From NCBI GenBank assembly GCA_029856435.1, contig JAHQXB010000067.1, forward strand, positions 1 through 18,909: 18,909 bases of DNA. The letters are read 5' to 3'. Positions 2,732 through 18,909 of the stretch are shown piece by piece. Origin of the DNA: Candidatus Jordarchaeia archaeon (GTDB taxonomy: Archaea > Asgardarchaeota > Jordiarchaeia > Jordiarchaeales > Jordiarchaeaceae). The notes below the pieces were generated by a model. It was not told the origin of the DNA and did not search any database. It saw nothing but the letters and a program-made list of their open reading frames with translations. The stretch's first letter is position 1. Each line of letters starts with the position of its first letter. A program made the position numbers and the translations under genes.

Positions 2732-2737
2732 CTCATT

Positions 2738-3775
2738 TTATATTTTTACAACTTTTTTCAGGTGGCGAGGTGCATCCGGGTTCAAGCCATTACCCACACA
2801 GTAGTGATAGGCAAACAATTGCAAAGGAATTATTTGAATGGTGGGGGAGAGAGCTTCGTCCACCCCGGGGGTGGTAAGGGTTTGGTTGGCTGGAACGTTA
2901 GCTCCACTCGTTACTGCTAGAACGTTGGCCCCCTTCTCTTTTATCTCTTTGATGAGTTCCACGTATTCCTTGCTGGGTCTTTTTGGAACCAAGCATATTA
3001 CAAGGGTTTTTTCGTCAACTACTGCTATTGGGCCGTGTCTAAACTCCAGTGGGTGGTAGGCTTCTGAGTGAATGTAGGATGTTTCTTTGAGTTTTAGGCT
3101 TCCCTCAAGGGAGGCTCCGTAGCTTGAGCCTCCTCCCAGAAAAATGAATTTCTGTGAACCGCAGTTTAGCGCTAGTTCACGCATCTTTTCGCCCAGGGTG
3201 AGCGTTTCTTGGGCGAGTTCTGGCATTTTCCTTGCCTGGCTTAACTGTTTTCCCACATCTTTGCCCCTGTTTTGGGCGTAGTGGAGTGCTAGGAGCTGGA
3301 GTGCGTAAACTTGGGTGGTGAAGGTTTTCGTCATTATCACACTTTTCTCCTCTCCAGCATTGACTGTTATTGCTAGTTTTGAGTTTCTGGCCATGCTGCT
3401 TTCGCGGGTGTTTGTGATGCTTACTGTGAATGCTCCAAGCTGGTTTGCTTTGGAGATTGCTCTGACGGTTTCGGTGGTTTCGCCTGAGCGGGAGACTCCT
3501 AAGGCTGCTGCTTGGCTTTTGGCTTGTGGTGGAGGATACTCATAGAACTCTGAGGAAGGTGTGACATATGCGTCGACTTCGGCATAGGTTTCTAGGGCGG
3601 ATTTTCCGCAGAGACAGATATAATGAGAGGAACCGCACCCGAAAAGGTAGAACCTATACTCTTTTTCGGAGAGAATTTTGGCAACCTTCTCAATGTTCCC
3701 TTCTTCAAGGAGAGTTCTCCTGAGGGCGTCGGGCTGCTCATAAATTTCCCTTAGCATATAATGCTCCATACTCAC
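2738..3775 (-). CDS. glmD: SIS-domain glucosamine-6-phosphate deaminase (GlmD/NagB-II type; GlmS isomerase-like, no glutaminase domain)
   Basis: Motifs MLREIYEQP, GCGSS, SRSGET, TKTF, LKLKE, EFRHGP and PRHLKKVV; 345 aa with no N-terminal Cys glutaminase domain; nag context. Confidence 0.8.
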   Translation of the reverse strand: MSMEHYMLREIYEQPDALRRTLLEEGNIEKVAKILSEKEYRFYLFGCGSSHYICLCGKSALETYAEVDAYVTPSSEFYEYPPPQAKSQAAALGVSRSGETTETVRAISKANQLGAFTVSITNTRESSMARNSKLAITVNAGEEKSVIMTKTFTTQVYALQLLALHYAQNRGKDVGKQLSQARKMPELAQETLTLGEKMRELALNCGSQKFIFLGGGSSYGASLEGSLKLKETSYIHSEAYHPLEFRHGPIAVVDEKTLVICLVPKRPSKEYVELIKEIKEKGANVLAVTSGANVPANQTLTTPGVDEALSPTIQIIPLQLFAYHYCVGNGLNPDAPRHLKKVVKI

Positions 3776-4034
3776 ACCTTACCTTCTCGCCTAGAAAAAG
3801 GGGAAGTGGACTCTAACCCTAAAAACATAAAACATTTGGGAATCCAACATACTTCCACGTACCTACATTATGGGGTTTCCCACCGAGCAGTGGAGTGGGG
3901 TGTTCACCCAATGGGTTTTATTATATTTTTCAATTTGTTTCGCCCTTAAAAAGGTGAGGGCTTCCTAATGATTACATCTCAACAATGTGCCCCTTTGTCC
4001 TTTTTCTACTTTTTTCAAAAAAACATTTGAATTC

Positions 4035-4062
4035 TGAAAATTTTTCAAATTTACAATGTAAA
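4035..4062. promoter_or_regulatory. Two adjacent 13-bp palindromes (candidate operators) in the glmD-nagA divergent region
   Basis: TGAAAA-T-TTTTCA (4035-4047) and TTTACA-A-TGTAAA (4050-4062), both 6-1-6 dyads. Confidence 0.3.
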
Positions 4063-4270
4063 GTTGCAAAAAATTCAGCAAACACACAATGAAGGCAAAA
4101 ATTAAAAACTGTGCAAACAGCGCAGACACTTAAAAATTCTTAAATAGCATTCCGCCCCTATCAGAAAGACAAGTTTACAGCCGGTTAAACGTTTAAGACT
4201 CCACTACTTTCTGCAGTCTCAGCCCCTGTCTTGGAACTGTCCCTTTCAGAAGTCGGAGTTGTGATTTATT

Positions 4271-5455
4271 ATGGTTGGGGAAATTCTTGCAGTCAGGTGC
4301 GGTAGAATACTTACACCCTTAAGGGAAATAAGTGACGGCGTTATTCTAGTTCAGGGAGGCAGAATAGTATCCTTGGGAGTTAATGGCGAGTTGACCGTTC
4401 CCAGCGGTGCCAAAACCTTAAACTTTGAAGACAAAATAGCTGTTCCCGGATTCTTAGACATTCACATCCATGGAGGAGGAGGACACGACGTGATGGAAGC
4501 CTCAGAAGAAGCAGCCACAGGTTTAGCTCTTTTTGCTTCTAGACACGGGACGACATCCATTCTCCCCTCAACAGTTTCCGCCCCTCACCATAGCCTACTA
4601 AAAGTTGTGAAGGTTCTTGGAGAAATGGTGGGGAGGGAAACAGGGGGGGCCGAACTACTGGGCATCAATCTCGAAGGACCCTACATTAATCCTAAAATGC
4701 GGGGAGCCCACAACGCCAAACACATAAGGCTCCCTTCAGTGAATGAGTTTAAAGATTTGTGGAAGATGTCAGGTGAACAGCTGAAAATAGTGACGCTGGC
4801 CCCCGAATTAGAGGGAGCTGAGAAACTTTTGGCAGAGCTCCACAAACTGGGAGTGGTGGCCGCAGTTGGCCACTCAGACGCCACCTACAGTGAAGTCGTG
4901 GAGGCAGTTAGTCTTGGTCTCAGCCACGCAACCCACATTTTTAACGGTATGAGAGGGTTCCACCACAGGGAGCCTGGGACAGTAGGGGCGGCTCTACTTT
5001 GTGAGAAGCTAACAGCCGAGGTTATTTCTGACAATATTCACGTGCACCCAGAAGCAGTAAGACTGTTGACCAAAGTGAAGGATCCCAGCCTCATAGTTCT
5101 TGTGACGGACTCCATTATGGCTGCTGGGATGCCAGACGGAGAGTACCGATTGGGGAACCAGAGGGTTACCGTGAAAAACGGTGTTTGTATACTGGAATCC
5201 GGAAGCCTTGCAGGAAGCACTCTGACAATGGAGGCCGCCATAAGAAACACTGTCCGAGCTGCGGGTCTCCCCTTACAGGTAGTTTTAAGGATGGCAACTG
5301 TAAACCCTGCAAGAGTTATTGGTGTCGGTGAGAGGAAGGGAAGCTTGGAGCCAGGCAAAGACGCCGACATAACCATAATAGACAGTGAGGTAAACGTTTA
5401 CGCCACAATAGCGAGAGGAAAAGTAGTTTATGGGAAGGATTTATTGGGTAGGTAA
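4271..5455 (+). CDS. nagA: N-acetylglucosamine-6-phosphate deacetylase
   Basis: Amidohydrolase motifs PGFLDIHIHG, LEGP, GHS, THIFNGM, VTDS and LAGSTLTM. Confidence 0.95.
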   Translation: MVGEILAVRCGRILTPLREISDGVILVQGGRIVSLGVNGELTVPSGAKTLNFEDKIAVPGFLDIHIHGGGGHDVMEASEEAATGLALFASRHGTTSILPSTVSAPHHSLLKVVKVLGEMVGRETGGAELLGINLEGPYINPKMRGAHNAKHIRLPSVNEFKDLWKMSGEQLKIVTLAPELEGAEKLLAELHKLGVVAAVGHSDATYSEVVEAVSLGLSHATHIFNGMRGFHHREPGTVGAALLCEKLTAEVISDNIHVHPEAVRLLTKVKDPSLIVLVTDSIMAAGMPDGEYRLGNQRVTVKNGVCILESGSLAGSTLTMEAAIRNTVRAAGLPLQVVLRMATVNPARVIGVGERKGSLEPGKDADITIIDSEVNVYATIARGKVVYGKDLLGR

Positions 5456-5549
5456 AGAACATTTTATACATGCTCCTGTTGAAAATCTCTCTAAAGGTAC
5501 GGTGACTGGTGAACACCATTTTGCGATTTGGATGCAAAAAAAGGGGTGA

Positions 5550-5693
5550 ATGAGTTTGGGAACAAGAAAGGTTTACTGCATTTGGTGTGGTAGAAGATAT
5601 CTGCTATCCACCAGCGAGAAATTAAAGGAGACAGTTTGTCCAAACTGCGGCAAAAAAGGCAAAATATATACAGTCATCGACGATTCGACCTAA
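5550..5693 (+). CDS. 47-aa zinc-ribbon microprotein (absent from the ORF track)
   Basis: MSLGTRKVYCIWCGRRYLLSTSEKLKETVCPNCGKKGKIYTVIDDST*; two CxxC pairs; GGGGTGA SD directly upstream of the ATG. Confidence 0.75.
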   Translation: MSLGTRKVYCIWCGRRYLLSTSEKLKETVCPNCGKKGKIYTVIDDST

Positions 5694-5785
5694 AAGCCAG
5701 CCACCAAACCATAATCCTTTCTTCCCGGGTAACACGTATTAGAGAATAAAAAGAATTTGGAAACTTTGGCTACTGCCCCTTCCTG

Positions 5786-5821
5786 AAAAAAATAAGAAAA
5801 AAATGGGAAGTGAAGGAAAAA
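5786..5821 (-). terminator. Oligo-T terminator region of the DUF35/thiolase-fold operon
   Basis: T5, T7 and T7 runs on the minus strand within about 50 nt downstream of the stop at 5837. Confidence 0.5.
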
Positions 5822-5836
5822 CGATCTCTTTTTTAT

Positions 5837-6337
5837 TTATTTTATGGGTTCCACCCCGATGATGTCGCTTAGTTTTCCTTCGGGTTTTTCCTTCCAGACC
5901 GCTTGAACCCTCATTCCTATGTGTGCTTCCTCAGGCTTGGCGTTCAGCAGTATCGTTGTATATTTTGAGTTGGTGCCGTCAAAATTGACCAGTACCATTA
6001 TTAGCCTCTCTCCTTCCTTGAGCCACCCCATTTCCACGGGATCCATTCCTAAAACCTTTACTTGGCCCCTCTTTACCGCCTGACTCAAAGTGAAGGACCT
6101 AACTGTGCCCTTGTCACTCACAGTTACCCGGGCATCTATTTTTCTCCAGCATCTACCACAAATGTTTCTCATTGGCACGTATACGAATCCGCAGCCAGTG
6201 CACAGCGACCCAATTATTTTCTTCTGCTTAAATCCCTCAAGTAGTTCCTGATAGAGTAGGGGTGCCTTATAAACGTAGGAGCCTACGGGCCACACGCCTT
6301 CCACTGCAATTGTTTCTTTTCTCACCTTCTTCGACAT
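5837..6337 (-). CDS. DUF35 Zn-ribbon/OB-fold acyl-CoA-binding protein
   Basis: CTGC...YVPMRNICGRC rubredoxin-like ribbon followed by OB fold (GTVRSFT...GMRVQAVW); operonic with thiolase-fold genes. Confidence 0.9.
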   Translation of the reverse strand: MSKKVRKETIAVEGVWPVGSYVYKAPLLYQELLEGFKQKKIIGSLCTGCGFVYVPMRNICGRCWRKIDARVTVSDKGTVRSFTLSQAVKRGQVKVLGMDPVEMGWLKEGERLIMVLVNFDGTNSKYTTILLNAKPEEAHIGMRVQAVWKEKPEGKLSDIIGVEPIK

Positions 6338-6341
6338 TATC

Positions 6342-7598
6342 TCACCACCTCAACCTAGGGCTATCTCCCAGAACTGTTACCACTGTAAAGTTGGTTGAGC
6401 CACCCCAACCGTGGGCTACAGCGTTCCTTACGTCCCTGGGCACTTGGTGCCCCTCAGCTTTACCCATTATTTGTAGGGCGCACTCCGCCACTCTCTGCAT
6501 AGCTGAGGAACCTATGGCATTAGTGGAGAGTACACCGCCTGAAGGGTCAATGGGCATTTTGCCGTCTATCTCTGTTTCCCCCTCTTCTAGGGGAATCCAA
6601 GCCTTACCATCATCAAAGAGAAGCAGCCTCTCTGAATACATCAATTCCTGGTGGGGGAAGGGTTGATAAATCTCCGCCACATCAATCTCTTCTCTGGGAT
6701 TCTTTATCCCCGCCATCCGGTAGGCCTTCATGGCCGCAATTCTGCACTGAATCTGCTCCGAAGTATCCAGTACGGATACCCCTTGAGCGTTTTCCGCCTG
6801 CTGATTCTCCTCATCGGCACACGCCGCGAGTCCCCTCACCCAGGCGGGCCTATCAGCCTTTCTCGCTATTTCTTCGGAGGCAATCACAATGGCTGAAGCT
6901 CCATCACTTGCCGGGCAAATGTGTCCCATTCTCAACGGGTAAGCAACAATTTCGCCAAACCTAGGATGCTTTGCTAGGGATTCAGCGGTGCAGTTGGGCC
7001 ACTGGATATGGGCATACTTATTCTTGGCAGCGTTTCTACGGGATTTGGCGGCAACCATATCCAAATGTTCGATTTTGCATCCAGAGCGGTGCATGTACTC
7101 ACATGCCTGGTATGCGGAAACTCCTGCTGCTGCGCCAACTCCCCCACCATAGGCAAAACTGGTTCTCACATCGACTCCATTTGCCAGTAGGTGAAACATG
7201 TTTGCCAGTCCCACATGGGCTAACCCCATTGTTGCTCCGGGCTCTTTACTATCTGAGTGTTTTTCAAATCCTATGGCTAGAACAGTGTCGAAGAGTCCCG
7301 AAGCCACCTGATACATTCCACACTGGGCCACAGAGCCTCCAGTTGTGCCTCCCGTGGCTATTCTGAGCACTGGCTTGCCAGGAGCACCGAATAGTTCTCC
7401 GCTCCACAGCTCTGCTTGGCAGATTCCTCCGAAGCCTTGCATATTCCCTATGGCAATGGCGTCTATGTCTTGGGGGCCTAGTTCGGCGTCCTCTAATGCC
7501 TTCCAGGCTGCCTCTGCTATCATTTCTGCAGTGTTAATGTCTCTTCTTATTCCATGTTTGGTCTGTCCAACACCAATTACTGCAATGTTTCGCCACAC
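6342..7598 (-). CDS. Thiolase-fold (SCP2-type) protein, Ltp3-like probable retro-aldolase subunit
   Basis: Motifs AVIGVGQTK, CPASDGASA, EIYQPF and PSGGVLSTNAIG. The nucleophile position reads RIATGGTTGGS (no Cys) and the GHP motif reads TNA (no His). Confidence 0.8.
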   Translation of the reverse strand: MWRNIAVIGVGQTKHGIRRDINTAEMIAEAAWKALEDAELGPQDIDAIAIGNMQGFGGICQAELWSGELFGAPGKPVLRIATGGTTGGSVAQCGMYQVASGLFDTVLAIGFEKHSDSKEPGATMGLAHVGLANMFHLLANGVDVRTSFAYGGGVGAAAGVSAYQACEYMHRSGCKIEHLDMVAAKSRRNAAKNKYAHIQWPNCTAESLAKHPRFGEIVAYPLRMGHICPASDGASAIVIASEEIARKADRPAWVRGLAACADEENQQAENAQGVSVLDTSEQIQCRIAAMKAYRMAGIKNPREEIDVAEIYQPFPHQELMYSERLLLFDDGKAWIPLEEGETEIDGKMPIDPSGGVLSTNAIGSSAMQRVAECALQIMGKAEGHQVPRDVRNAVAHGWGGSTNFTVVTVLGDSPRLRW

Positions 7599-8761
7599 TA
7601 CTCCTCACCTCCCAGAATGAAGACTATGTTTTGCTGGGCACATATGCCAGTTTGGCCGTGGGCTAGGGCTCTCCAAGCTCCCGATACTTGGTGAGCTCCA
7701 GCTTCTCCCCTTATCTGCATTGTGGCTTCAACTATTCTTATTAGCCCTGTGGCGGATATGGGGTCTGCTGAGAGGGCTCCGCCGCTGGGGTTTACTGGTA
7801 GTTGCCCATCGTTGAAGGTTGCACAGCTATCTATCAGGGTTCCTCCTCTGCCTTCCTCACAGAAGCCTAGAGCCTCATAAATCATGAGCTCCTCATGGGC
7901 ATATCTTTCTGATACTTCGGCTACGTCTAGTTCTGCGAAAGGGTTCTTTATGCCCGCCATCTGGTAAGCTTTCCTCGCCGCGATTTCTAGCCCCTCAAGC
8001 TTGTAAAGCTTTCTGTCTCTGAGATATGAGTCTTGACAGCTGCCCACACCTTTTATCCAAACGGGGCAGTCTGAAAGCTCTCTTGCCTTCCTCTCTGAGG
8101 CTAAAACCACCGCTGCGGCCCCATCACTTATGGGGGACATGGTGAGTTCCCTTATAGGGTCACAGTAAAGCTTAGAGTTTAACACTTCTTCCAGTGAGAT
8201 TCCGGGCATTCTGCGGTGTGCGTGGGGATTCTTGGCGGCGTTGCTTAGGTTCTTCACGGAAACTATGGCTGCCTCATCTTCAGATACGCCGTACTTGTTC
8301 ATATATATTCTTGCTTGGATAGCTGCTGCGGAGATATCATTTAGAACTCCTATTTGCCTATCGAAGGTGGGGTCTAGGGTGTAGACTGAGATCTGGTGGG
8401 GGTTGAAGGTTGAACCCTGAGTGTTAGCCACTATTAGTGCTATGTCGTGGGTTCCTGAGAGTATTTTGAGCATGCCATAGAAGAGAGCGTTGGCTCCATC
8501 CATCTCCACCTTAGTGTAGTCCTTAAGGTAGGCTCCGATGGGCATAGTGAGGAAAAGCTCGGAAATGGTTCTACCCTCATAGTAATCGTTTGTGGCGTTA
8601 ATCACTGTGTCAATATCCTCCCTTCCAATACCAGCCATCTCGGCGGCTTCCTTGGCCACCTCAAAAACCATGTCCTCCCTCGTCATTGGCATATTTGCCT
8701 GATGGAAAGACTGAGCATACCCAATTATTGCGACCTTCTCTCTCATCAATTTAGGTTTCAC
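7598..8761 (-). CDS. Thiolase-fold (SCP2-type) protein, Ltp4-like subunit (true start may be ATG at 8746)
   Basis: KVEMDGANAL in place of the thiolase ENACASG motif; SPISDGAAA; PSGGALSADPI (no His); C-terminal QQNIV. Confidence 0.8.
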   Translation of the reverse strand: MKPKLMREKVAIIGYAQSFHQANMPMTREDMVFEVAKEAAEMAGIGREDIDTVINATNDYYEGRTISELFLTMPIGAYLKDYTKVEMDGANALFYGMLKILSGTHDIALIVANTQGSTFNPHQISVYTLDPTFDRQIGVLNDISAAAIQARIYMNKYGVSEDEAAIVSVKNLSNAAKNPHAHRRMPGISLEEVLNSKLYCDPIRELTMSPISDGAAAVVLASERKARELSDCPVWIKGVGSCQDSYLRDRKLYKLEGLEIAARKAYQMAGIKNPFAELDVAEVSERYAHEELMIYEALGFCEEGRGGTLIDSCATFNDGQLPVNPSGGALSADPISATGLIRIVEATMQIRGEAGAHQVSGAWRALAHGQTGICAQQNIVFILGGEE

Positions 8762-9231
8762 CCCTCCGGTTTGAATCCTTTAATGTCGGAGATTTGGCCC
8801 CTGGTCTCCTCCTGCCAGACCACATTCACCATGATGCCCGCCTTAAGTTTTTCTGGATCCACGTCTATTAGGGGCATAAATATTGTTGAGTCTGCGCCCT
8901 CCAGCTTTATGGCTCCAATTGCCTTAGGCTTTTCTAAGTCTCGAAAGTTGCCGTTACCATCCAGTTCAACATAAGCCGTTGTGAAGCCTATCAAAACTCC
9001 CTTACCGGAAAGTTCAACCAGGTTGTTTGCATCCATTTTTGCTGAGCACTTGCCACACCATGCTCTTGGGGGAACATAAGTGTAGTTACACTTAGAACAT
9101 TTGGCTCCCAATATTTTCTTGTTTCCCAGTTCTCTGATGAATCTATCCATGAGTTCGCCAACAGACCACTTGAACCCGGCGACGACTGGAATTCCCCTAA
9201 CTGGTATAACTTCCTCTTTTAGGCCTTTCAA
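8758..9231 (-). CDS. DUF35 Zn-ribbon/OB-fold acyl-CoA-binding protein
   Basis: CSKC...VPPRAWCGKC plus OB fold (GIMVNVVW); TTG start with AGGAGG SD. Confidence 0.9.
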   Translation of the reverse strand: MKGLKEEVIPVRGIPVVAGFKWSVGELMDRFIRELGNKKILGAKCSKCNYTYVPPRAWCGKCSAKMDANNLVELSGKGVLIGFTTAYVELDGNGNFRDLEKPKAIGAIKLEGADSTIFMPLIDVDPEKLKAGIMVNVVWQEETRGQISDIKGFKPEG

Positions 9232-9280
9232 ATTAACCCTCCTTAAAGTTCAAAATTTGTAGAAACGCTTGAAAAGTATC

Positions 9281-9300
9281 TATTAGACAGCCTAATAAAA
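9281..9300 (-). promoter_or_regulatory. TATA-like box overlapped by a palindrome upstream of the DUF35/thiolase-fold operon
   Basis: TTTTATTA on the minus strand (9300-9293) overlaps TATTAG-N5-CTAATA (9281-9297). Confidence 0.4.
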
Positions 9301-9653
9301 TTAACGTCAACAAAATGACTATGCAAAAAATGAATAAAAAGGATAAAACCTTTTTCGCAACTAAATATTGATGCATGGATTAAAAAATATGAACACCATC
9401 GGATTTAACTAAAATGGCTATTAAAACTCTTTTAGAAAAATAGGAGAAGATGGGAGAACTGTTTGAATGCCCATGCTAACAGTTCTAAAATAGCGGTGTT
9501 TAAATGGAATTATGCTGAACTATAGAGTTTCTCATTAATTTTTTCCTAAACCTATCCTTAACCGGGGTTATTTAAGGCTTCTTTCACCAAAAAAAGGCGG
9601 AAAAAACCATACCTTCTTGAAGAGAAAAGGAAAAAATTAAATGGAAAGTCTAT

Positions 9654-9945
9654 ATTGTAGGGCACAATTCCCGTTGTTCTGAACCAGACACCCCTTCTCC
9701 AAACGATTTCCGTATCGGTAAGCCTGTAAAAAATGTTATAATAATACCTCCTAATCCAGAACAAAGAAAAAACCAGTATAGGCAGAACAACAAATACCGA
9801 ATAGACAGCAATACTGGTAACTGCAAGTTGATCCAGAAACAGTAGGGGAAAATACCAGGGCAAAAGAAACAAAAAGCAATCACCAAGTAAGTATAGTAGA
9901 GTTTCCTAAGCTGTGGAGCGGGTTTAAACTCTTCACCAATCTATG
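9654..9945 (-). pseudogene. Truncated, frameshifted bacterial-PH-domain (bPH_2-like) membrane protein
   Basis: IGEEFKPAPQLRKLYYTYLVIAF / LFLLPW...YRLTDTEIVWRRGVWFRTTGIVPYN. Start is damaged (TAG at 9943-9941), frameshift at the A5 run 9871-9875, and homology stops after VPYN. Confidence 0.7.
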
Positions 9946-10165
9946 CTCTAAAACCCTTCTTCAAAAAGTCGACCTCCCAAAAACTTTAAACAACCACCTA
10001 TAAATAGGGCTTAATGCCCTTCAACAACTAAACCAGAATTTCACGCAGCCAAATATAAACATACCCAATGCACAGGAGCCGCAAACCAAAACCAACCATT
10101 TAGACAAGTGCATAGTTTAAAACGTACAGAATCAGAACGTCAAAAAATTGGGGGAGGCACCCTTT

Positions 10166-11314
10166 TTAAATGGATATGGGATACCTTCCGTATTTTTTAA
10201 TGGAGTTGACTAGTGCTTCAACATTTTCTGGTGGGGTGTCCCTCGGCACTTGGTCTCCGAAAACCATGCAGCCCCCTCCGGGAGCTAAGACTTTTATTAG
10301 TTTTTTAACGTGGTTTTCTATTTCTTGGGGAGTTCCCTTGCTTATGATTCCCGCTCTCACTCCAAAGAACCAGGGCTTCTTCAGTCTATTAGACATTTCC
10401 TTAATCTTCTCCGGCGGCAACCAATCCGACTCCAACATAACCACATTGCCCACCAGTGACCCTGTATTAACCACCACATCTTCCATAATTTTTTCCCATC
10501 CCGGAATCTCCACCACGGGGAAGCCTCCCGCCCACATCATAGGACCAAGTCTCTTCATGATCTCTTTCGTATGTGGAATCACATAGTCGTAGACAAGCTG
10601 GGGACTTGTAGGTGGGATGCATGAAAAGGCATCTGCAAGTGCCGGAAAGGCTGCTACACCTCCCAGCGCTTCCTTCTGCGCTTTTATAAATGCTTCAATG
10701 ACGTCGACGCAGAAATCGAGGGTTTTGTGGGCGAATTCCGGGTTTTTCCTGGTATCCCTTACTAGGCTATTGAATCCCCGGATTTGCACTGCCATAGACC
10801 AGGGTGCGGAAGCCACCAGGGCAGTAAAAGCGTATTCCCCTAACTTTTCTAGGTATAGTTTGGTGCCCTCAATGACGTAGGGTCCGCGGCCAGCCTTTGT
10901 GAAGTCTGGTATTTCCAGCTTTTCCAGGTCCCTGGGCTCCTTGATTAGGGGTTCGAGAATGACTGGAAAGCTGTCTTCTGGGAACAGCATTTTTGCTCCC
11001 AGAGCTTCGGCCTCGTAATTGTAGGCGTCGGCGAAGGCTCCTGGTATGTCGAACTTGTACTTTATTGCTGTAAATAGCTGAGCATACAACATTTTCTTGG
11101 GATCAGTGCATAGTTCTCTAACAGTTATCCCAGCTACCCTCGCGGCGTGGTCGTGTATCTGCATAAAGACTGGCATTCTATCTGGCTCCTGGAACATGAA
11201 TATCTTGGTGAACCGCTCTAGTGTGGGGTGGGGTTCCTTTGAGGCCATATCCTTAAACTTTTCAGCCAGCTTATCTATCTCAGCATCTATATTGGCTTCA
11301 GTTAATTTAACCAT
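10166..11314 (-). CDS. URO-D/MtaA-CmuA-fold corrinoid-dependent methyltransferase, paralog 1
   Basis: Motifs EPDRMPV, EAEALGAK, IPDF..GR.PYV, RG...L.RD.RKNPE, GT.QEI and TP.EN; directly downstream of the corrinoid protein gene. Confidence 0.85.
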   Translation of the reverse strand: MVKLTEANIDAEIDKLAEKFKDMASKEPHPTLERFTKIFMFQEPDRMPVFMQIHDHAARVAGITVRELCTDPKKMLYAQLFTAIKYKFDIPGAFADAYNYEAEALGAKMLFPEDSFPVILEPLIKEPRDLEKLEIPDFTKAGRGPYVIEGTKLYLEKLGEYAFTALVASAPWSMAVQIRGFNSLVRDTRKNPEFAHKTLDFCVDVIEAFIKAQKEALGGVAAFPALADAFSCIPPTSPQLVYDYVIPHTKEIMKRLGPMMWAGGFPVVEIPGWEKIMEDVVVNTGSLVGNVVMLESDWLPPEKIKEMSNRLKKPWFFGVRAGIISKGTPQEIENHVKKLIKVLAPGGGCMVFGDQVPRDTPPENVEALVNSIKKYGRYPISI

Positions 11315-11326
11315 TCTCTTCTCCTC

Positions 11327-11965
11327 CTATACCTTTACTAGTTTTTTCGCCACCTCAACTGCCTCCAGGGCATCGTCGGCGAAGGCATCGGCACCCACCT
11401 CTTCCACATGTTTGGGGTAGACTGACGCTCCCCCAATTAGATACTTTATGTTTTTTCTTACGCCTGCCTTTTTCATTTCTTCGTTGAGTTTTCTGAGCTC
11501 GTCTATGGTTGTGGAGATGTATGATGAGGCTCCCACTATTTGAGGTTTCTCTTTCTTGATGGTTTCTATGAATTTTTGGGGTGAAACATCTATTCCCAGG
11601 TCAACTACGTAGAATCCCGCTCCGCGGAGCATGGCCACTACAATGTTTTTTCCAATGTCGTGTACGTCTCCCTGACAGACTCCCATAACGATTTTTCCCA
11701 AGAATTCTTTGCCTGCTGTTGGGAGTTGGGGAAGAATCAGCTTTAGTCCCTCACTCATGGCCTCAGCAGCCATAACTAGGTCGGGAACGAAGTACTCTTT
11801 GTTCTCGTATTTTTTGCCCACTTCGTCCATCGCTTCGCCCATAGCTCTTATGACATCTATGGGTTTAACACCTTTTTCTAATAATTTTTTAACTGCTTCT
11901 TTTGCTGAGTCAGACTCCCCATTTATGATTGCTTCTTTTAGCACATTTAGTGTATTTTCAGACAA
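11327..11965 (-). CDS. Methyltransferase cognate corrinoid protein (MtaC/MtbC/MttC family)
   Basis: Four-helix cap (YFVPDL) plus B12-binding GDVHDIGKN (DxHxxG), VDLG and IGGA motifs. Confidence 0.92.
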   Translation of the reverse strand: MSENTLNVLKEAIINGESDSAKEAVKKLLEKGVKPIDVIRAMGEAMDEVGKKYENKEYFVPDLVMAAEAMSEGLKLILPQLPTAGKEFLGKIVMGVCQGDVHDIGKNIVVAMLRGAGFYVVDLGIDVSPQKFIETIKKEKPQIVGASSYISTTIDELRKLNEEMKKAGVRKNIKYLIGGASVYPKHVEEVGADAFADDALEAVEVAKKLVKV

Positions 11966-11979
11966 GACACATAACCTTC

Positions 11980-12023
11980 TTAGAGAGATATCTTTCTAAT
12001 TGTCCTTATTTTTCTATTATTTA
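11980..12023 (-). promoter_or_regulatory. Promoter of the corrinoid/methyltransferase operon with a 20-bp dyad over the predicted start site
   Basis: TTAAATAA on the minus strand (12023-12016); TTAGAGAGATATCTTTCTAA (11980-11999) is palindromic except for one pair. Confidence 0.5.
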
Positions 12024-12565
12024 ACTATTTACTTTACGTATTAAGCAGTTTTAGTGGAAACTCTGCTTTAGCCAGTGTTCTTCGAGTCCCTTTTTGAGGG
12101 AAGAGGGCAATTGGTTCTTTTGTGGCGTGCAAATCTTATTTTGAGTTTATTCGGTTGAAAAATGTTTAATTGTTGGCTTTTTGGAATGGGAATTGATTTC
12201 CTTTTACTGCATGTTTTTAGGTTTAGAGCCCCTTTTTTCTGGGCTCACTCTTTTGGTGGGTGGGAGCATAAATGTTTGTTTGCACTTGTTTTTGGATAGA
12301 ACTTGTTAAAACCCATTTTTCGCAGGTTTGGGAATCCGCGAAATGGGATTGCGTAGTGTCCCATCATCACACTTCCAAATTTTGAGAAAATAAATATATC
12401 AGGCCGGTGAAAAAGCAAAAGCACCTCCAAACCATTCTTGAGAAAAGCACAATCACCCAAAGAGCTCCACAGAACCTACGAAATATCGGTTAAAAAATAA
12501 TTTAAATGTGAGGGAGTAAAATAGTATAGGTGGGTGTACATGCACCCTTTAATGAAGAACGGAGG

Positions 12566-13455
12566 ATGAGAGATGTGATGAGAGCTAAAGCAGAGAACGC
12601 CTCGGTCACCCTGGTATTCAGAGAACCAGTCTCGTGGGAGGCGGCCTCTGCCCTAACATGCACCCCAGGGAATAGTTGTTACTCCTTGGGGAATAAAAAC
12701 ATTTTGGTGTTCTTCACGGCACAATTAATTTGGTGTCTCCTGCTGCGTGTTATTTGTTTTTTGGCCTTCATCGTCCTTTTGGGGTGCCCTTTTCGGCTTT
12801 TTACCCTGCAGAATAAATCATAATGGGCTTCGATATGGGGACACAGGACGCGACATAAACGTACACCCAAAAAGTGACTCCCAGTTAATTGTGCCTTCTT
12901 CACACGCGGAAAAAACATAACCAGCGGTAAGGTTCAAGACCTCCCCCTAAATATCCTTGTGAAGAAACCCTGGCGCGGCTTCACGCTGAACGGGGAGAAC
13001 GTTGAAGACCTGTGCTTCAGACTCGCTTTCGACCACGCCCTCATGCTCGCCGAGGACATAGCTTGGGATGAGCGGGAGAAAAAGAAGGGAAAGAAGGCAA
13101 AGTGGGGAAAGAAAAAACAGTCACATGCCCTTCTACTACAGAATTACGAGAAAACCACCACAGGCTTCAGGGAACAATACGAAGCCGCAAGAAAGTTGCT
13201 AGGCCAGGTGGGCAGGAACGAAACTTCGCCAACATGGAGGTCAGAGCGGGCAAAAGTTACTACGGGGAGCAGGAGAATTATGACAAGGTCCTCAGGCTGG
13301 GGGCTATTCATCGCAAAATCAGGCGTGTATTGTTCCTCCTTGGGATGAGGCGCTTTTTCGTTCTCCTCGGAAAACTGCTTCCTGAGGAAGTGGCCCTACT
13401 CCAGTTCATGGAGCAGACAATCTGTGGAAAAACAGGCTTAGTCCACCCCATTTAA
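12566..13455 (+). pseudogene. Orphan gene of about 234 aa, interrupted by a MITE and a frameshift
   Basis: Removing 12718-12903 (186 bp, 62 codons) joins ...NKNILVFFT to RGKNITSGKVQDLPLNILVKKPWRGF... in one frame. One extra G at 13210-13212 joins this to QERNFANMEV...VHPI*. GGAGG SD at 12561-12565. Confidence 0.7.
12718..12895. mobile_element. 178-bp MITE with terminal inverted repeats and 8-bp target-site duplication
   Basis: GGCACAATTAA (12718-12728) / TTAATTGTGCC (12885-12895), extendable to 18 of 22 matches; TTCTTCAC directly repeated at 12710-12717 and 12896-12903. Confidence 0.9.
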
Positions 13456-13657
13456 TCCGCTTCACAGCCTCCACCACAAGAAGACTGGAACATGTAGAGT
13501 AGAGGGAGAAACGTACATCCCAAACAAGTATGGGAACACAGAAAAAGGCAAAACGCCCCCCCACGCCAATTACTTGCTATTAAAAACATTTTTTATGTTT
13601 TGTCTAAGAAGCAGAGCTTATGTAGGTTTTTTAACAAGTTCGCAGTAGCCAAAAGAT

Positions 13658-13881
13658 TTAAACGTATAACACCTTCATATTTTTGTCTTTTCTATGCGGA
13701 GTTGATTTGTCTAGGAACAGCGAGAACCGCCTATATCCGAACCTTCTCTTCGTCTCCTTCAGGAATTTCAGGAAATTTTCACTGCCTATATTGGGGTTTT
13801 GTCTGAAGAGCTGTCGGTCGTCCTGATCAGGGTGCCGAAGATGCAGGTCTTCGGATGTGATCTTGTGGTCAGTACCGTTGG
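13658..13881 (-). mobile_element. IS630-family transposase remnant (internal DDE fragment, frameshifted)
   Basis: PTVLTTRSHPKTCIFGTL / DRQLFRQNPNIGSENFLKFLKETKRRFGYRRFSLFLDKSTPH resembles the recalled archaeal IS630 segment GSH..TC.FG....GRQLFRQ...F..FL......LFLD.A..H. Confidence 0.7.
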
Positions 13882-13921
13882 CTGTTTTAGCAAAATATAT
13901 CAGTAAGCGTGAATATACTAA

Positions 13922-13948
13922 ATGGTGATGGTGATGGTAATGGTGATA
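13922..13948 (+). repeat. Hexamer tandem repeat (ATGGTG) at the antitoxin start
   Basis: ATGGTG ATGGTG ATGGTA ATGGTG ATA, encoding MVMVMVMVI. Confidence 0.75.
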
Positions 13949-14182
13949 GAAGGACGTGTAGACGATCAGGGTAGATTAGTAATACCAAAAGATATCAGGG
14001 AGAAATGGAGGTTAAAAGGCGAGGTAGACATAGTTGAGGTAGATGATGGAGTGTTAATCCGCCCCAAAAAAGGTGGATGGAAGAACTTTCTATCTAAAAA
14101 AGTGAAGGTTGATTGGGACAGGGCTGTTGCCGTTTCTCTTGAGAAAGTTTCGGTTGACGAGTTGATGTTTGGTGAATCATAA
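13922..14182 (+). CDS. AbrB/MazE/SpoVT-family antitoxin
   Basis: VDDQGRLVIPKDIREKW swapped-hairpin motif; stop overlaps the PIN gene start (TAATG). Confidence 0.9.
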   Translation: MVMVMVMVIEGRVDDQGRLVIPKDIREKWRLKGEVDIVEVDDGVLIRPKKGGWKNFLSKKVKVDWDRAVAVSLEKVSVDELMFGES

Positions 14183-14760
14183 TGTTGAGGAAGATGATTG
14201 ACGCTAATATCTTAGTTTACGCCCTTGTGGAGGGGCATCCTGCAACGGATGCATGTGAAGAATTCATCAGGAGAGTGAGTGAAAAAAAGTTGCTGGTGAC
14301 CACACCCCTAACTCCATTCGAAATCTACTATGTGCTCTGGAGGATTTATGGGTTAAGCAGAAACGAGGCATTTGAACAAGCGGTCTCACTCTTCGATTCT
14401 CCTATAGAGTTCATGCGCATCACAGAAGAGGATGCACGTATGGCTCTCAAAAAAGTTGTGGAGCACTCTATAGAAGCAAATGATGCTCTGCTTTTAGTCT
14501 CTTGTCTCCAACATGGCATATCCTCATTAGCATCAGATGACACGAGGTTGCTGAAGGCCTGCCAAGAGGAGGGGGTGCACACCGAGAAACCAATTGATGC
14601 CAAAATTAGCCAAAAGATGGAAATGTGGGAGAAAGAGAAACTGCCGGAAAAAGGTGCTCAGAGAATGCTCCTCAGAATCTACAACTGGCTACTGGATAAA
14701 GATCCTAAAGTTGCAGAGGAGTTTAAGCAAGCTACCGGTAATATGAAGAGACTCCCTTAA
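14182..14760 (+). CDS. vapC: PIN-domain (VapC) toxin with a C-terminal extension of about 55 aa
   Basis: Acidic PIN residues present in IDANILVY, FEIYYVL, NDALL and SDD; coupled to the AbrB-family gene. Confidence 0.85.
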   Translation: MLRKMIDANILVYALVEGHPATDACEEFIRRVSEKKLLVTTPLTPFEIYYVLWRIYGLSRNEAFEQAVSLFDSPIEFMRITEEDARMALKKVVEHSIEANDALLLVSCLQHGISSLASDDTRLLKACQEEGVHTEKPIDAKISQKMEMWEKEKLPEKGAQRMLLRIYNWLLDKDPKVAEEFKQATGNMKRLP

Positions 14761-14833
14761 TCAGCACATGAAAGTTATGGAAATTTTTATACCTTAAATA
14801 CTGATACATATTCCATGGTGGGGGAGAAGTGTT

Positions 14834-15128
14834 ATGAATTTTGAGGGAACTTTTTTGGGAGCCTAGTTTTCGATGGGAAAAGGTATGGACACGACATATT
14901 GGTTCTTCCGGATGGCAGGGTGGAGAAAAGGAGGAAAATCTTTCCATATCTGTTTTCGGAACTAGTCACAAACTAGTTTCAGAAGTTGAATTCTTAAAAG
15001 AAGCCGAATTAATTATTATAAGCACTGGTCAAAGCAGTTTATTGAGGCTAACAGGGAAGCTGAGGATTGGGTGAAAAATAGGTATAAGAGTTTCTTTCTC
15101 CAACGCCAATTATTTTTTTAACAAGTTC
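14834..15128 (+). pseudogene. Mth938-like domain (DUF498/DUF598) pseudogene
   Basis: Pieces across frames: MNFEGT / FGSLVFDGKRYGHDILVLPDGRVEKRRK / NLSISVFGTSHKLV...IIISTGQSSLLRLT / EAEDWVKN / PTP; four apparent single-base losses. Confidence 0.75.
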
Positions 15129-15194
15129 TTTTGGATAAAAAGATCTATTTAGTTGTTTTACTACGTTTTAGAAGGCTATAATTAGTGACCGCTT

Positions 15195-15704
15195 TTGTAT
15201 GGCACAAAATGGGTGAGGTTTTCTTTGAAAGGCAGACCCAGATTGTTTAAATCAGACTTGGTGAAGGTCACCATGAGGATTCCCGAGAGTTTGAAAAAAA
15301 GAATCGAGGACTATGCGGAGCGTAACGAGATTAATTTTAATGAGGCAACGCGGAGACTATTCTTGAGTGGACTGGAGGGGCCTCGTCTCAGGAATCAGGG
15401 GTTTAACTGGTTTCAGAAGCTTTTTGAGGATGCTCCAAAGTCTCCTCTTTTTGAGGATTTCAAAGAAGCTTTTATTAGGATTCTGGGAGAATTTCTGAGT
15501 GGATATTTCGAGAAGAATCCTCATGTTTTGGCGGAAGGCATAGCTGGCTTCCTTGGGGGTCACCTAAAATATTCAGAGGATATTTTGGGCATTGAGAGGG
15601 GAATGCTGGCTAAAGCTGTGGCTGCGGGAAATCCTGAGGTAGAGAAAAGAATGTCAGAGCTACTTGAAAATATGTTGTGGATAATGGAGTGGATTCACAA
15701 GTAA
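15195..15704 (+). CDS. Ribbon-helix-helix (CopG-like) protein with helical C-terminal domain (start may be GTG at 15261)
   Basis: KVTMRIPESLKKRIEDYAERNEINFNEATRRLFLSGL fits the RHH pattern. Confidence 0.7.
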   Translation: MYGTKWVRFSLKGRPRLFKSDLVKVTMRIPESLKKRIEDYAERNEINFNEATRRLFLSGLEGPRLRNQGFNWFQKLFEDAPKSPLFEDFKEAFIRILGEFLSGYFEKNPHVLAEGIAGFLGGHLKYSEDILGIERGMLAKAVAAGNPEVEKRMSELLENMLWIMEWIHK

Positions 15705-15733
15705 ACCCAAACGGACACGCTAAATGGAGGAAT

Positions 15734-15945
15734 TTGAGTTTGAACCGATTAAATAACATTATTGTTTGTGGTGTTTGTGGAAAAAGGCGGAGAAACACAG
15801 ACATTGCCTATATAGAGTACATACAGGTGTCGCTGTTTGTTCAAGTTGTGCTTTGAGGATAAGCATGGATCTAGTTAAGCGTGACAAAGAATGTTTAGAA
15901 GAAATTGACGAATTCCTCAAAAACAAGATTGAGAATGAAGAGTGA
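15734..15945 (+). pseudogene. Frameshifted C4 zinc-finger small protein (ClpX-type spacing), about 70 aa
   Basis: GGAGG SD then TTG; MSLNRLNNIIVCGVCGK / AEKHRHCLYRVHTGVAVCSSCALRISMDLVKRD...ENEE*; one A missing from the run at 15781-15785. Confidence 0.65.
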
Positions 15946-16053
15946 ATCCAGTAACCTTTCTTGCTAGCATATGATGAGAGATTACTGTTGGTTTATTTGT
16001 TCTGCCAAGGCTAAGGTGGCTCTCTGCGGAAAAATCTCTGGGATGAATCCAAA

Positions 16054-16326
16054 ATGGACATTATTCTTGAGAGTCTGAAGAACCTGATAGCTAAAATATA
16101 TTCGGGTGTGACTAAGGGAATCGAGGAGAATATTGAAAATTGCTGGAGAGAGCTCTGGGAGAAAAAGCAAGATAATAAATTATCCCCGGAATCAATCAGG
16201 GAAAACCAAGAACTCCTCACAAAGATAGTAATACTCGTAGAGGCCTTTCTCAGCGAACAATTAAAAATAGATGAGCTACACCAAAAAATAAAAAGAATTC
16301 TGAAAATGGAGAATATAAAACTTTGA
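16054..16326 (+). CDS. Hypothetical helical protein, possibly the remnant of a longer gene
   Basis: 90-aa ORF; the same frame extends 31 codons upstream to TTG 15961 across a single TAA at 16012-16014 (LAYDERLLLVYLFCQG*GGSLRKNLW). Confidence 0.45.
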   Translation: MDIILESLKNLIAKIYSGVTKGIEENIENCWRELWEKKQDNKLSPESIRENQELLTKIVILVEAFLSEQLKIDELHQKIKRILKMENIKL

Positions 16327-16403
16327 AATCGTATCAATCTCCTGTGTAGAAACATATACTTACAAAAAAACTTTTTTAGTTATGTAGAAAGAAAGGAGGG
16401 AGT

Positions 16404-16627
16404 CTGGAACGATTTTACCCACCCAACTTTTTGGGTATGAATTCCCTTGGTCGTCGATTCTAATAGTTGCATTTTACGTGGGCGTCGTAGTGATTTGGGT
16501 CATCGTGGCCCGATGGGTTTATGGGGATGCAAATGAACGTGGTATGGATGCTGCACTTTGGGCAGTTCTGGTATTCCTATTTGGGCTAATAGCACTTATT
16601 ATCTATCTGGTTAAAAGACCGAGCTAA
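16404..16627 (+). CDS. Small PLDc_N-like two-helix membrane protein (5' end damaged; intact GTG start possible at 16478)
   Basis: IWVIVARWVYGDANERGMDAALWAVLVFLFGLIALIIYLVKRPS* matches WVY.DA..RG...W..LV...G....IYL..R; GGAGG SD at 16395-16399; not in the ORF track. Confidence 0.7.
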
Positions 16628-16711
16628 ACCTATCCAAACGCTGGAAACTTAGAATGTTGACAGATTATCCGTCAAGGAAAAGTCACTTACCAAGAAGCAA
16701 GAGATTCAGAA

Positions 16712-17860
16712 TCATTCCACTGATATGGGGTACTTCCCATACCTTTTTATGGAGTTTATGAAGGCTTCGAAGTTTTCGGCTGGCGTGTCTACGGGGATAG
16801 GGTCACTTATTACAGCGCAGCCCCCGCCGGGACCAAGTATCTTTATTTTACTTTTAATGTAGTTTTCTATTTCTTTGGGCGTGCCTTTGCTTATGAGGGC
16901 TGATCCCACTCCAAATGCCCATGGTTTGTGGAGCCTGTGTGACATTTCCTTGACCCTCTCAGCTGGTAGCCAGTCGGACTCCAACATGATAAGGAAGCCC
17001 ATCTGTGTACCGGTCTTCGTCACAGAGTCTTCAACGATTTGCTCCCACTGAGGGATTTCGCAAACAGGGTAGCCCCCAACCCACAGTGCCATTCCCAGTT
17101 TCTTTATAAGTTCCGCTGCGTATGGAAACACGTAATCGTAGACTATTTGGGGGCTGGCTGGAGGGATACATGAGAAAGCATCATTTATAGTGGGAACTGC
17201 TGCAACCCCCGCTGCTTCCCTCTGAGTTTTCACAAAGGTTTCAATAACATCAACGCAGAAATCCAGTAGCCTCTCCACGAATGCGGGGTTTTTTCTGGTT
17301 TCTCTAACTAAATTGTTGAAACCCCTCAATTGCACCGCCAGCGACCAGGGACCATTAGCCACTATGCCCAGAAGACCATAATTTCCCAGTTTCTCCAAGT
17401 ATAGCCTGTTTCCCTCCATAACGTAAGGTCCGCGGCCAGCCTTTGTGAAGTCGGGTATATCCAGTTTTTCCAGTTCCTTGGGCTCCTTAATTAGGGGTTC
17501 AAGGATAACCGGCCAGCTGTTTTCAGGATAGTACATTTTTGCCCCCAAGGCTTCGGGCTCAAAATTGTAAAGGTCAGAAAGGTTAACCACGGTGTCCATT
17601 TTGAATTTCACAGCTGTGTAGAGTTGGGCGTAGAGCATTTTTTTAGCGTCTGTGCAAAGTTCCCTAATTGTTATTCCTGCCATTCTTGCTGAGAACTGGT
17701 GCACCGTGGTTGAGACTGGCATTCTATCCGGCTCTTGAAAAAACATAATCTTTGTGAATCTTTCCAAGAAAGATTGAGGCTCCTTTGAAACCCTTTCCTT
17801 AAACTGCTCAGCCAACCTATCTATCCAAGCATCAATATTCCCCTCTTCAAATTTGGGCAT
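16712..17860 (-). CDS. URO-D/MtaA-CmuA-fold methyltransferase, paralog 2
   Basis: 382 aa, roughly 60% identical by eye to 10166-11314; GGAGGAG SD. Confidence 0.85.
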   Translation of the reverse strand: MPKFEEGNIDAWIDRLAEQFKERVSKEPQSFLERFTKIMFFQEPDRMPVSTTVHQFSARMAGITIRELCTDAKKMLYAQLYTAVKFKMDTVVNLSDLYNFEPEALGAKMYYPENSWPVILEPLIKEPKELEKLDIPDFTKAGRGPYVMEGNRLYLEKLGNYGLLGIVANGPWSLAVQLRGFNNLVRETRKNPAFVERLLDFCVDVIETFVKTQREAAGVAAVPTINDAFSCIPPASPQIVYDYVFPYAAELIKKLGMALWVGGYPVCEIPQWEQIVEDSVTKTGTQMGFLIMLESDWLPAERVKEMSHRLHKPWAFGVGSALISKGTPKEIENYIKSKIKILGPGGGCAVISDPIPVDTPAENFEAFINSIKRYGKYPISVE

Positions 17861-18336
17861 ACCACTCTCCTCCAGTCAAAAATTATCCACCATAACCTTT
17901 GAAAAATGGGACTAATTACTTAAAACTCTTTTGCAGGAAAGTCTTTGGGTGTTTCAGCCCTTTGAAACTCTTGATTGTAATCAGCCAGCGAAAACCGGGT
18001 GATGTAGAATCGTTCGATTTCGCCTCAAAAAGGGGGTGTTTATAGGGATTCTTTCACGATTTGGAGCCTTATTAGGGAGATGGAGCCGAATAAATCTGCA
18101 TCACCAGCCAGCCACAAAAACAGATCCCTACAAATAGGAGTACTGCCTAAACATATGGATAGCCATCTACCTTTTCAGAAAAACAAACACAAAAAAGAGT
18201 AAAAACTCTAACCCTCTCAGGCTCTTTAGTGCCCGATATTCTGCATTGGGTAATTCTCCGAAATATTCAGTCTGGATCATATTTTTCCTCAAGAGGGAAG
18301 AGTTATATTGTTAAACTTTACTACTTTGTGATACCC

Positions 18337-18582
18337 ATGGTTAAACTTAGACTAAGAGTTGGCCCTAAAGGGCAGATAGTGCTCCCAAAAATGGTGAGGC
18401 ACAAACTGAACATTAAGCCATGCAGTTACGTATTAGCGGACTTCAGGGAGGACAGTCTAATCCTACAGAGAGCGCCGGATGTGGAGGAGTTCTTAGAATG
18501 GTTGAAAAAGTCTCGGAAGCCTCTGGCAAAGGAGGTTTCCAAGCTTAGCATAGAGGATGAGGCCCTTGAAGATATTCCTTGA
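18337..18582 (+). CDS. AbrB/MazE/SpoVT-family antitoxin (81 aa; start reassigned from 18229)
   Basis: MVKLRLRVGPKGQIVLPKMVRHKLNIKP; GTGAT SD upstream of ATG 18337. Confidence 0.85.
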   Translation: MVKLRLRVGPKGQIVLPKMVRHKLNIKPCSYVLADFREDSLILQRAPDVEEFLEWLKKSRKPLAKEVSKLSIEDEALEDIP

Positions 18583-18725
18583 TTCCTCTTACCTGATATA
18601 TCTAAGATACGCGGAAAGTGACACGGTTTTCAATTATGTTATAAAGTTCCTCTTGGAAGCCGTTAAGCAGGAAAAACGCTTAATGGTTAACATGATAGTT
18701 ATAGATGAAACTGTTTGGATTTTAT
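18566..18725 (+). pseudogene. vapC: 5' part of a PIN/VapC toxin interrupted by an IS200/IS605-type insertion
   Basis: MKIFLDSSYLIYL...VIDETVWIL contains the first two PIN acidic residues; PIN-like sequence then stops at a hairpin-bearing element. Confidence 0.75.
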
Positions 18726-18909
18726 CTACACTTCGCAAGAAGACCCCTTCCGAAAGAGAGGGGATGAATTGCGGTTGAACTTAAATAACTCTTACAATCT
18801 AAAAAGTTTTTGGGATGTTCCCTTGCAGAAAATACGACAGAGACCTGAATGCGTGTGTAAATATAGCCCATAGGGTAACGAGCTCTATGGGATGGGGGAG
18901 CCGTGAGCC
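18726..18909 (+). mobile_element. tnpB: Internally deleted IS200/IS605 element: end hairpin plus tnpB 3' remnant, running off the window
   Basis: Hairpin CCCCTTCCGAAAGAGAGGGG (18744-18763); frame from ATG 18815 reads MFPCRKYDRDLNACVNIAHRVTSSMGWGSREP (TnpB RuvC-III DRD.NA..NIA) only about 110 bp from the element start. Confidence 0.75.

Follow-up and report, generated by a model that had tools for sequence, protein, structure and literature searches.

A corrinoid methyltransferase pair in a Jordarchaeia genome that lacks the zinc triad of MtaA and is most likely a demethylase

What does a corrinoid methyltransferase do when the residues that would hold its zinc are gone? The question is raised by a contig of an Asgard archaeon, Candidatus Jordarchaeia archaeon (GenBank assembly GCA_029856435.1, contig JAHQXB010000067.1, positions 1 to 18,909 of the forward strand). 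We refer to this whole stretch of 18,909 nucleotides (nt) as the window; it is contig C26 of a genome of 3.5 Mb that is 98% complete. The zinc ligands of MtaA form a His-x-Cys ... Cys triad that activates a thiol. The window encodes a small corrinoid protein and two copies of an enzyme with the MtaA fold, a member of the superfamily of uroporphyrinogen decarboxylase (URO-D); neither copy carries the triad. An initial annotation, made from the sequence, saw here a zinc-independent or differently ligated subfamily with a substrate other than coenzyme M (CoM) and proposed an undescribed system. We conclude that the window pair is a triad-free corrinoid methyltransferase that probably does not serve CoM and most likely acts as a demethylase. 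We found no studied member of its branch of the superfamily, but the kind of enzyme and the architecture of the system are already known. The features at issue are:

10166..11314, minus strand: URO-D-fold corrinoid methyltransferase copy 1 (P0001, 382 aa), proposed methyltransferase 1 (MT1); PF01208, E 2.3e-39
11315..11326, minus strand: 12-nt spacer with GGAGGAG, from the stop codon of the corrinoid protein to the ATG of copy 1; read from the sequence
11327..11965, minus strand: corrinoid (cobamide) methyl-carrier protein (P0002, 212 aa), with GDVHDIG as its DxHxxG motif; PF02607, E 8e-19, and PF02310, E 7e-24
16712..17860, minus strand: URO-D-fold methyltransferase copy 2 (P0003, 382 aa), proposed second MT1; PF01208, E 6.9e-36

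Fold and zinc-ligand positions of the two copies

Both genes of the module that the initial annotation had placed at 10166-11965 are there. P0002 consists of a B12-binding_2 and a B12-binding domain with the base-off/His-on motif, and it matches the model for 'methyltransferase cognate corrinoid protein' (TIGR02370) with E 1.6e-56, at 190.9 bits and thus under the 215.3-bit cut-off. The short spacer and its GGAGGAG imply that P0002 and P0001 are co-transcribed and that their translation is coupled. The two methyltransferase copies are 66% identical.

P0001 belongs to the UroD superfamily (135.8 bits against PF01208, with a cut-off of 23.9 bits). Its AlphaFold2 model, built from a 33-sequence alignment, is a triosephosphate isomerase (TIM) barrel with an overall predicted local distance difference test (pLDDT) score of 94, and Foldseek aligns this model to MtaA (4ay7) with a template modelling (TM) score of 0.75 and to uroporphyrinogen decarboxylase (UROD, 6w2o) with one of 0.74. 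The structure of CdmB (9rui) is absent from these Foldseek matches, in a library of PDB entries up to April 2026 that may lack it, and CdmB is compared below by sequence. A profile of its clade aligns over the full length with 30 triad-bearing MtaA-like proteins (hhalign, 100% probability, E 2.4e-68). P0001 stays far below the curated cut-offs for MtaA/CmuA, CoM methyltransferase, MtbA and HemE: for the models of MtaA/CmuA-type CoM methyltransferases it scores 53.5 against 235.4 bits (TIGR01463), 48.6 against 244 (NF004889), 37.1 against 400 (NF040654) and 28.1 against 600 (NF041608), and for the HemE model TIGR01464 it scores 30.8 against 302.95. The N-terminal stretch NIDA.ID.LAE.FK, described initially as an extra helix, is indeed common to both copies and is modelled as a helix (residues 9-25). 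The extension is not unique, however: in the bacterial sister group, 51 of the 90 proteins are longer there by at least 20 residues.

Where the triad should lie depends on the alignment register. The initial annotation equated MWAGG in copy 1 with the LHICG of MtaA; this string and FGDQVP are present in copy 1, as are LWVGG and ISDPIP in copy 2, but the equivalence is eight residues off. Three aligners (MAFFT; HMMER against MtaA 4ay7; hhalign against 30 triad-keeping MtaA-like proteins) match L-H-I-C-G to V268-E269-I270-P271-G272 of P0001, past MWAGG, and the C-terminal G-C to G353-D354. The His/Cys/Cys positions are then Glu269/Pro271/Asp354 in copy 1 and likewise Glu/Pro/Asp in copy 2. DSSP places a strand of the AlphaFold2 model at 260-263 (MMWA), which fits the MWAGG register and makes it structurally conceivable. 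We therefore take E269/P271/D354 as the probable triad positions, by the aligners' register and with some ambiguity relative to the DSSP strand. Whichever register holds, neither copy has His or Cys at the ligand positions, and on this point the initial annotation was right.

The substitutions are strongly conserved in the clade of close relatives. Glu, Pro and Asp occupy the three aligned positions in 26 of 31 clade members. Four of the remaining members differ at the first position, where three have Gln and one has Lys, and the fifth has a gap at the third; none has His or Cys. Pro271 is invariant, Asp354 is found in every member aligned there, and E269 is kept in 88%. Against its orthologues, copy 1 has a ratio of nonsynonymous to synonymous substitution (dN/dS, Nei-Gojobori) of 0.05-0.09, and copy 2 has one of 0.10-0.12. 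With such conservation and dN/dS values of 0.05-0.12, the triad was not lost by chance or by decay; the loss is old and, as had been supposed, selected. A zinc site rebuilt from other cysteines was considered and is improbable: the four best-conserved ones (C69, C202, C232 and C349) lie apart, in helices and at the N-terminal end of a strand, and neither C232 nor C349 is invariant.

Spread of triad loss and position of the clade

Loss of the zinc ligands is common in this fold. We sampled 293 relatives, taken from the source genome, from two contig scans and from two protein searches; only 70 have His/Cys/Cys, and 223 are triad-less, with states that include H-D-N, H-C-H, H-D-H, C-E-A and Y-K-C among many others. 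Similarly diverse states are found among the 14 URO-D paralogues of the source genome. CdmB, the chloromethane:corrinoid methyltransferase of Acetobacterium dehalogenans (PDB 9rui), is unaffected by ethylenediaminetetraacetic acid (EDTA) or zinc and has no metal in its 1.57 A structure, and the Moorella O-demethylase MtvB is also zinc-free, whereas the veratrole and vanillate enzymes contain zinc (PMC13222342). According to the same study, Asgard archaea have homologues of CdmB, and many clades of the UroD superfamily are uncharacterised (PMC13222342). With most sampled relatives triad-less and two zinc-free enzymes published, loss of the zinc ligands is not unusual for the fold.

The source genome offers its own cross-section of the superfamily. 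Twelve further URO-D paralogues lie on contigs C67, C86, C52, C83, C152, C78, C49 and C130, and their triad-position strings include LHVCG..GC, IHNCG..GC, HSDG..GH, HCDG and FYEGD. Just 2 of the 12 keep an MtaA-type triad, and at least seven adjoin corrinoid proteins.

Trees of 293 sequences (FastTree) and of 50 sequences (IQ-TREE) agree on three nested groups, given here with their Shimodaira-Hasegawa-like approximate likelihood ratio test (SH-aLRT) values; neither tree contains the sequences of MtoB, MtvB, OdmB, VdmB, MecC/E and CmuA. The clade of the window enzyme (SH-aLRT 99) forms a small group with, among others, proteins from Planctomycetota that are 36-37% identical (SH-aLRT 98), and both are nested in a triad-less supergroup (SH-aLRT 99). 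The supergroup has a signature, D96-x-Y98-N99-x-E101-x-E103-A-L-G, that is 91-100% conserved within it and rare outside. All 12 other paralogues of the source genome, including the MtaA-like one (LHVCG...GC) and the CdmB-like one on C83, join the window pair at the root of the tree only. In protein atlas matches, the supergroup meets just unnamed URO-D clusters from Chloroflexota and Thermodesulfobacteriota, and nothing in the PDB matches P0032, from the bacterial sister group, at E <= 0.001. Sequence comparison with the O-demethylase and dehalogenase MT1s covered CdmB, with MtoB, MtvB, OdmB and VdmB outside the comparison, and there P0001 did not group with a characterised enzyme: the E value to CdmB is 0.003 for P0001 and 2.3e-7 for the clade profile, as against 8e-88 for the C83 paralogue.

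The clade itself is narrow and patchy. Members of at least 54% identity are confined to Freyarchaeota/Jordarchaeia assemblies and metagenome contigs, and the nearest proteins carry the labels Candidatus Freyarchaeota, Lokiarchaeia and Jordarchaeaceae. The class counts 11 species genomes. Of the 6 in the genus, the source genome counted, 4 have the clade, and a complete single-contig genome is among those that lack it; the 5 genomes of the other family all lack it as well. Its nesting among bacterial sequences suggests that it was acquired from bacteria.

Might the triad have been exchanged for another metal site? We consider this unlikely. Such an enzyme would be a metal-dependent MT1 in which His54, Glu269 and Asp354 (or Cys232) hold zinc or another divalent metal that polarises an ether or amine leaving group. 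A role of this kind has been proposed for the Glu/Glu/His motif of the vanillate MT1; zinc O-demethylase MT1s reportedly use motifs other than that of MtaA. In the window clade, carboxylates do stand at two of the three former ligand positions and H54 is invariant, lying by homology to the RQAGR loop of UROD at the C-terminal end of strand 1. The Gln or Lys found in place of E269 in four clade members would nonetheless be unexpected for an essential ligand, the second ligand is replaced by Pro, and in the sister groups all three positions are free to vary. Zinc-containing O-demethylase MT1s exist, but CdmB and MtvB act metal-free (PMC13222342).

Gene context and direction of methyl transfer

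The pairing of corrinoid protein and copy 1 is a stable arrangement. It is kept in seven contexts (the window, L013, L014 and L060-L063) and across relatives that are 76-95% identical. In L014 and L060, copy 2, a small conserved open reading frame (ORF), the corrinoid protein and copy 1 all fall within 5 kb, with copy 2 about 1.8 kb upstream of the pair; in L061 copy 2 is 163 bp upstream of it.

The direction of transfer is suggested by the bacterial part of the supergroup. At least 10 bacterial loci (including L020-L025, L032 and L043), from Thermodesulfobacteriota, Syntrophaceae, Anaerolineae and other bacteria, are single operons of corrinoid protein, URO-D protein, MtrH and RamA, often with major facilitator superfamily (MFS) transporters beside them. 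Since MtrH is the methyltransferase 2 (MT2) in these operons, the URO-D protein there must be the MT1. A Jordarchaeum orthologue of copy 1 (L015) lies 1.6 kb from a corrinoid protein-MtrH pair. The source genome encodes on other contigs 4 MtrH proteins and 3 RamA-type activases (RACo_C_ter), and it has in total about 15 corrinoid proteins and 14 URO-D-fold enzymes.

The module is probably a demethylase unit that depends on a corrinoid and is of the Mto or O-demethylase type: two substrate-specific MT1s would load the corrinoid protein that they share, and MtrH would hand the methyl group on to tetrahydromethanopterin (H4MPT). Each URO-D-fold protein (P0001 and P0003) would hold, at the C-terminal face of the TIM barrel, a methylated compound other than a thiol and would present its methyl group to Co(I) of P0002, giving CH3-Co(III). 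An MtrH-type MT2, encoded elsewhere in the genome, would then move the methyl group from P0002 to H4MPT, and a RamA-type ATP-dependent activase, also encoded elsewhere, would re-reduce Co(II) formed by accidental oxidation. Zinc/thiolate chemistry would not be used; conserved carboxylates and aromatics presumably handle the leaving group, the candidates being D96-x-Y98-N99-x-E101 in the supergroup and H54, W172, W261, E269, D297, W298 and D354 in the clade.

The layout of the window resembles a known system. In the Mto system of Methermicoccus shengliensis and Archaeoglobus fulgidus, MtoB1 and MtoB2 (URO-D superfamily, 57% similar to each other) methylate the corrinoid protein MtoC, the MtrH-like MtoA hands the methyl group to H4MPT, and the RamA-like MtoD reactivates the cofactor (PMC8630106). 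The window likewise combines two diverged URO-D-superfamily paralogues with one small DxHxxG corrinoid protein that adjoins an MT1 gene, and bacterial relatives of the window enzyme have an Mto-like four-gene operon with an MtrH-type MT2 and a RamA-type activase. Unlike the Mto system, the window clusters the MT1 genes with the corrinoid protein only, and the MtrH and RamA genes are on other contigs, where they are available as probable partners. The window enzyme is also about 40 residues shorter than MtoB (382 aa compared with 47-48 kDa), is distant in sequence from CdmB, the solved relative of MtoB, and has no aromatic-compound genes or transporter near its module. CdmB is itself a URO-D-fold, zinc-independent MT1 with a separate corrinoid protein, but it belongs to another deep branch of the superfamily (PMC13222342). 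The initial annotation was right about the corrinoid methyltransferase module, about the missing triad and about CoM as an improbable partner, with MT1 as the best reading. The claim of an undescribed system does not stand, given the published zinc-free enzymes (PMC13222342), the Mto layout (PMC8630106) and the triad-less majority among the sampled relatives.

A tentative idea of the substrate comes from the predicted pocket. H54, D96/Y98, W172, D228, W261, E269, E295/D297/W298 and D354 are invariant in the clade (E269 in the proportion given above) and lie at the C-terminal ends of predicted barrel strands. CdmB has a hydrophobic, aromatic-lined channel for haloalkanes, in contrast to the acidic residues and Trp at the strand ends of the window clade (D96, D228, D297, D354, W172, W261 and W298). 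A pocket this rich in acidic residues and Trp may favor a polar or cationic substrate. We tentatively suggest, as a possibility that we would not press, that the clade is a metal-free or carboxylate-ligated-metal MT1 for a polar, non-aromatic methyl donor, such as a methylated amine or a sugar or amino sugar with an O-methyl group. This suggestion draws on the Asp/Glu/Trp-rich pocket, on the Planctomycetota relatives amid glycoside hydrolases and on the nesting of the clade among bacterial sequences.

Several observations weigh against the demethylase assignment. A relocated metal site, or one built from carboxylates and His, is possible. The window contains no MT2 or activase gene (the initial annotation correctly noted that it has no tetrahydrofolate or H4MPT methyltransferase and no activator), so the partnership would have to work in trans with the MtrH and RamA proteins encoded elsewhere in the genome. 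The Planctomycetota relatives have no corrinoid protein within 7 kb (L017, L018, L069, L070 and L075, metagenome included). Among the sequences compared, no characterised enzyme falls in the supergroup, which leaves gene context as the ground for the MT1 role. Finally, the neighbours of the module vary between relatives and give no consistent hint of a substrate: N-acetylglucosamine (GlcNAc) genes and a DUF35-thiolase operon in the window; a glycyl-radical enzyme, iron alcohol dehydrogenases and a short-chain dehydrogenase/reductase in L062; TetR, ZIP and a DNA-alkylation repair protein in L063; flavin adenine dinucleotide (FAD)/CCG oxidase genes in L064; and MFS transporters in bacteria.

Could the two enzymes work in the opposite direction, as MT2s? 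In this quite unlikely case, P0001 and P0003 would act like MtaA and transfer the methyl group of CH3-Co(III)-P0002 to a non-thiol acceptor or, independently of zinc, to CoM, while the MT1 on the donor side would have its gene elsewhere. MtaA, MtbA and MtsA, which have been studied best among the URO-D-fold corrinoid enzymes, are MT2s, and the window enzyme has much in common with them: MtaA is a top fold match, the homology is full-length, the E103-A-L-G and D-T-P-P-E-N motifs are shared, and the corrinoid partner has a DxHxxG motif. It differs from them in having Glu-x-Pro...Asp where the thiol-activating zinc site should be, in about 30 extra N-terminal residues that include a helix, and in scoring far under the MtaA/CmuA and CoM-methyltransferase cut-offs. 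No other MT1 candidate (a homologue of MttB, MtaB or MtmB) stands beside the pair in the window, and CoM synthesis is predicted for Freyarchaeia (PMC11291895); the bacterial operons of the supergroup, however, already hold an MtrH MT2 and leave the MT1 role to the URO-D protein. The direction of transfer is likely opposite to that of MtaA.

It is highly improbable that the URO-D-fold proteins are decarboxylases or other TIM-barrel enzymes with an incidental corrinoid neighbour: although their best solved relatives by plain sequence search are uroporphyrinogen decarboxylases (E 6e-8) and the Planctomycetota relatives lack a nearby corrinoid protein, the HemE score is a tenth of its cut-off, the substrate-binding RQAGR of UROD is replaced by MQIHDH, the coupled spacer and the pairing are conserved, and the wider supergroup is embedded in corrinoid protein/MtrH/RamA operons.

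Some of the loci compared have features of their own. In L017 and L018, the Planctomycetota relatives lie amid GH2-like and GH123-like glycoside hydrolases and a xylose-isomerase-like TIM-barrel protein; these genomes have one small corrinoid protein only, located elsewhere. In Candidatus Jordarchaeum madagascariense (L015:283-5350), an MtmB-like protein (PF05369, E 4e-57), an FAD-binding protein, a corrinoid protein and MtrH follow one another just upstream of the copy 1 orthologue, possibly a methylamine-type module in an Asgard archaeon. The metagenome contig L062 encodes (741-3680, minus strand) a glycyl-radical enzyme of 979 aa that has an SCP2 sterol-carrier domain at its N-terminus; two iron alcohol dehydrogenases come after it, and this locus adjoins an 81%-identical corrinoid protein-URO-D pair.

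Remaining features of the locus and meaning of the module

Two further features may bear on how the module is expressed:

12015..12024, minus strand: TATA-like TTAAATAATA, about 55 nt 5' of the P0002 start codon, a possible archaeal promoter; read from the sequence
15195..15704, plus strand: conserved ORF P0267, 169 aa, a possible regulator; found between both methyltransferase genes in relatives

The N-terminal part of P0267 resembles, by eye, a ribbon-helix-helix domain, and the protein could be a regulator. An ORF 86-91% identical to it is found in the same position in L014, L016 and L060. A Pfam scan of the ORFs at 15195-15704 and 16054-16326 and of the N-terminal 270 aa of ORF 429-1499 gave nothing significant (best E 0.04-0.3).

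In L014 and L060, about 340 bp lie between the corrinoid gene and P0267; the window has about 2.9 kb of extra DNA there (12000-15190), with small ORFs and a MazE/PIN (VapBC-like) pair (13922-14760). Insertions have thus split the methyltransferase cluster here. Further away, ORF 429-1499 (plus strand) encodes a 356-aa protein with two C-terminal 4Fe-4S motifs, and a 278-aa relative of it, 30% identical, is encoded upstream of the copy 2 orthologue in L016, L019 and L060. The DUF35-thiolase-thiolase-DUF35 operon (5837-9231) adjoins the module also in L014, L060 and L061, in relatives down to 75-85% protein identity, but is not beside it in L062 or L063, and its link with the module may be no more than synteny.

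Freyarchaeia and Jordarchaeia genomes are rich in corrinoid methyl-transfer modules, which points to a lifestyle of demethylating many compounds without methanogenesis. If the methyl donor is indeed polar and non-aromatic, the module would be a new path by which an Asgard archaeon that is not a methanogen turns such compounds into methyl-H4MPT. Thermodesulfobacteriota, Chloroflexota and Actinomycetota also have the triad-less branch, which is widespread in them, and we found no studied member of it. The substrate, once known, would annotate hundreds of genes and say what these Asgard archaea eat.

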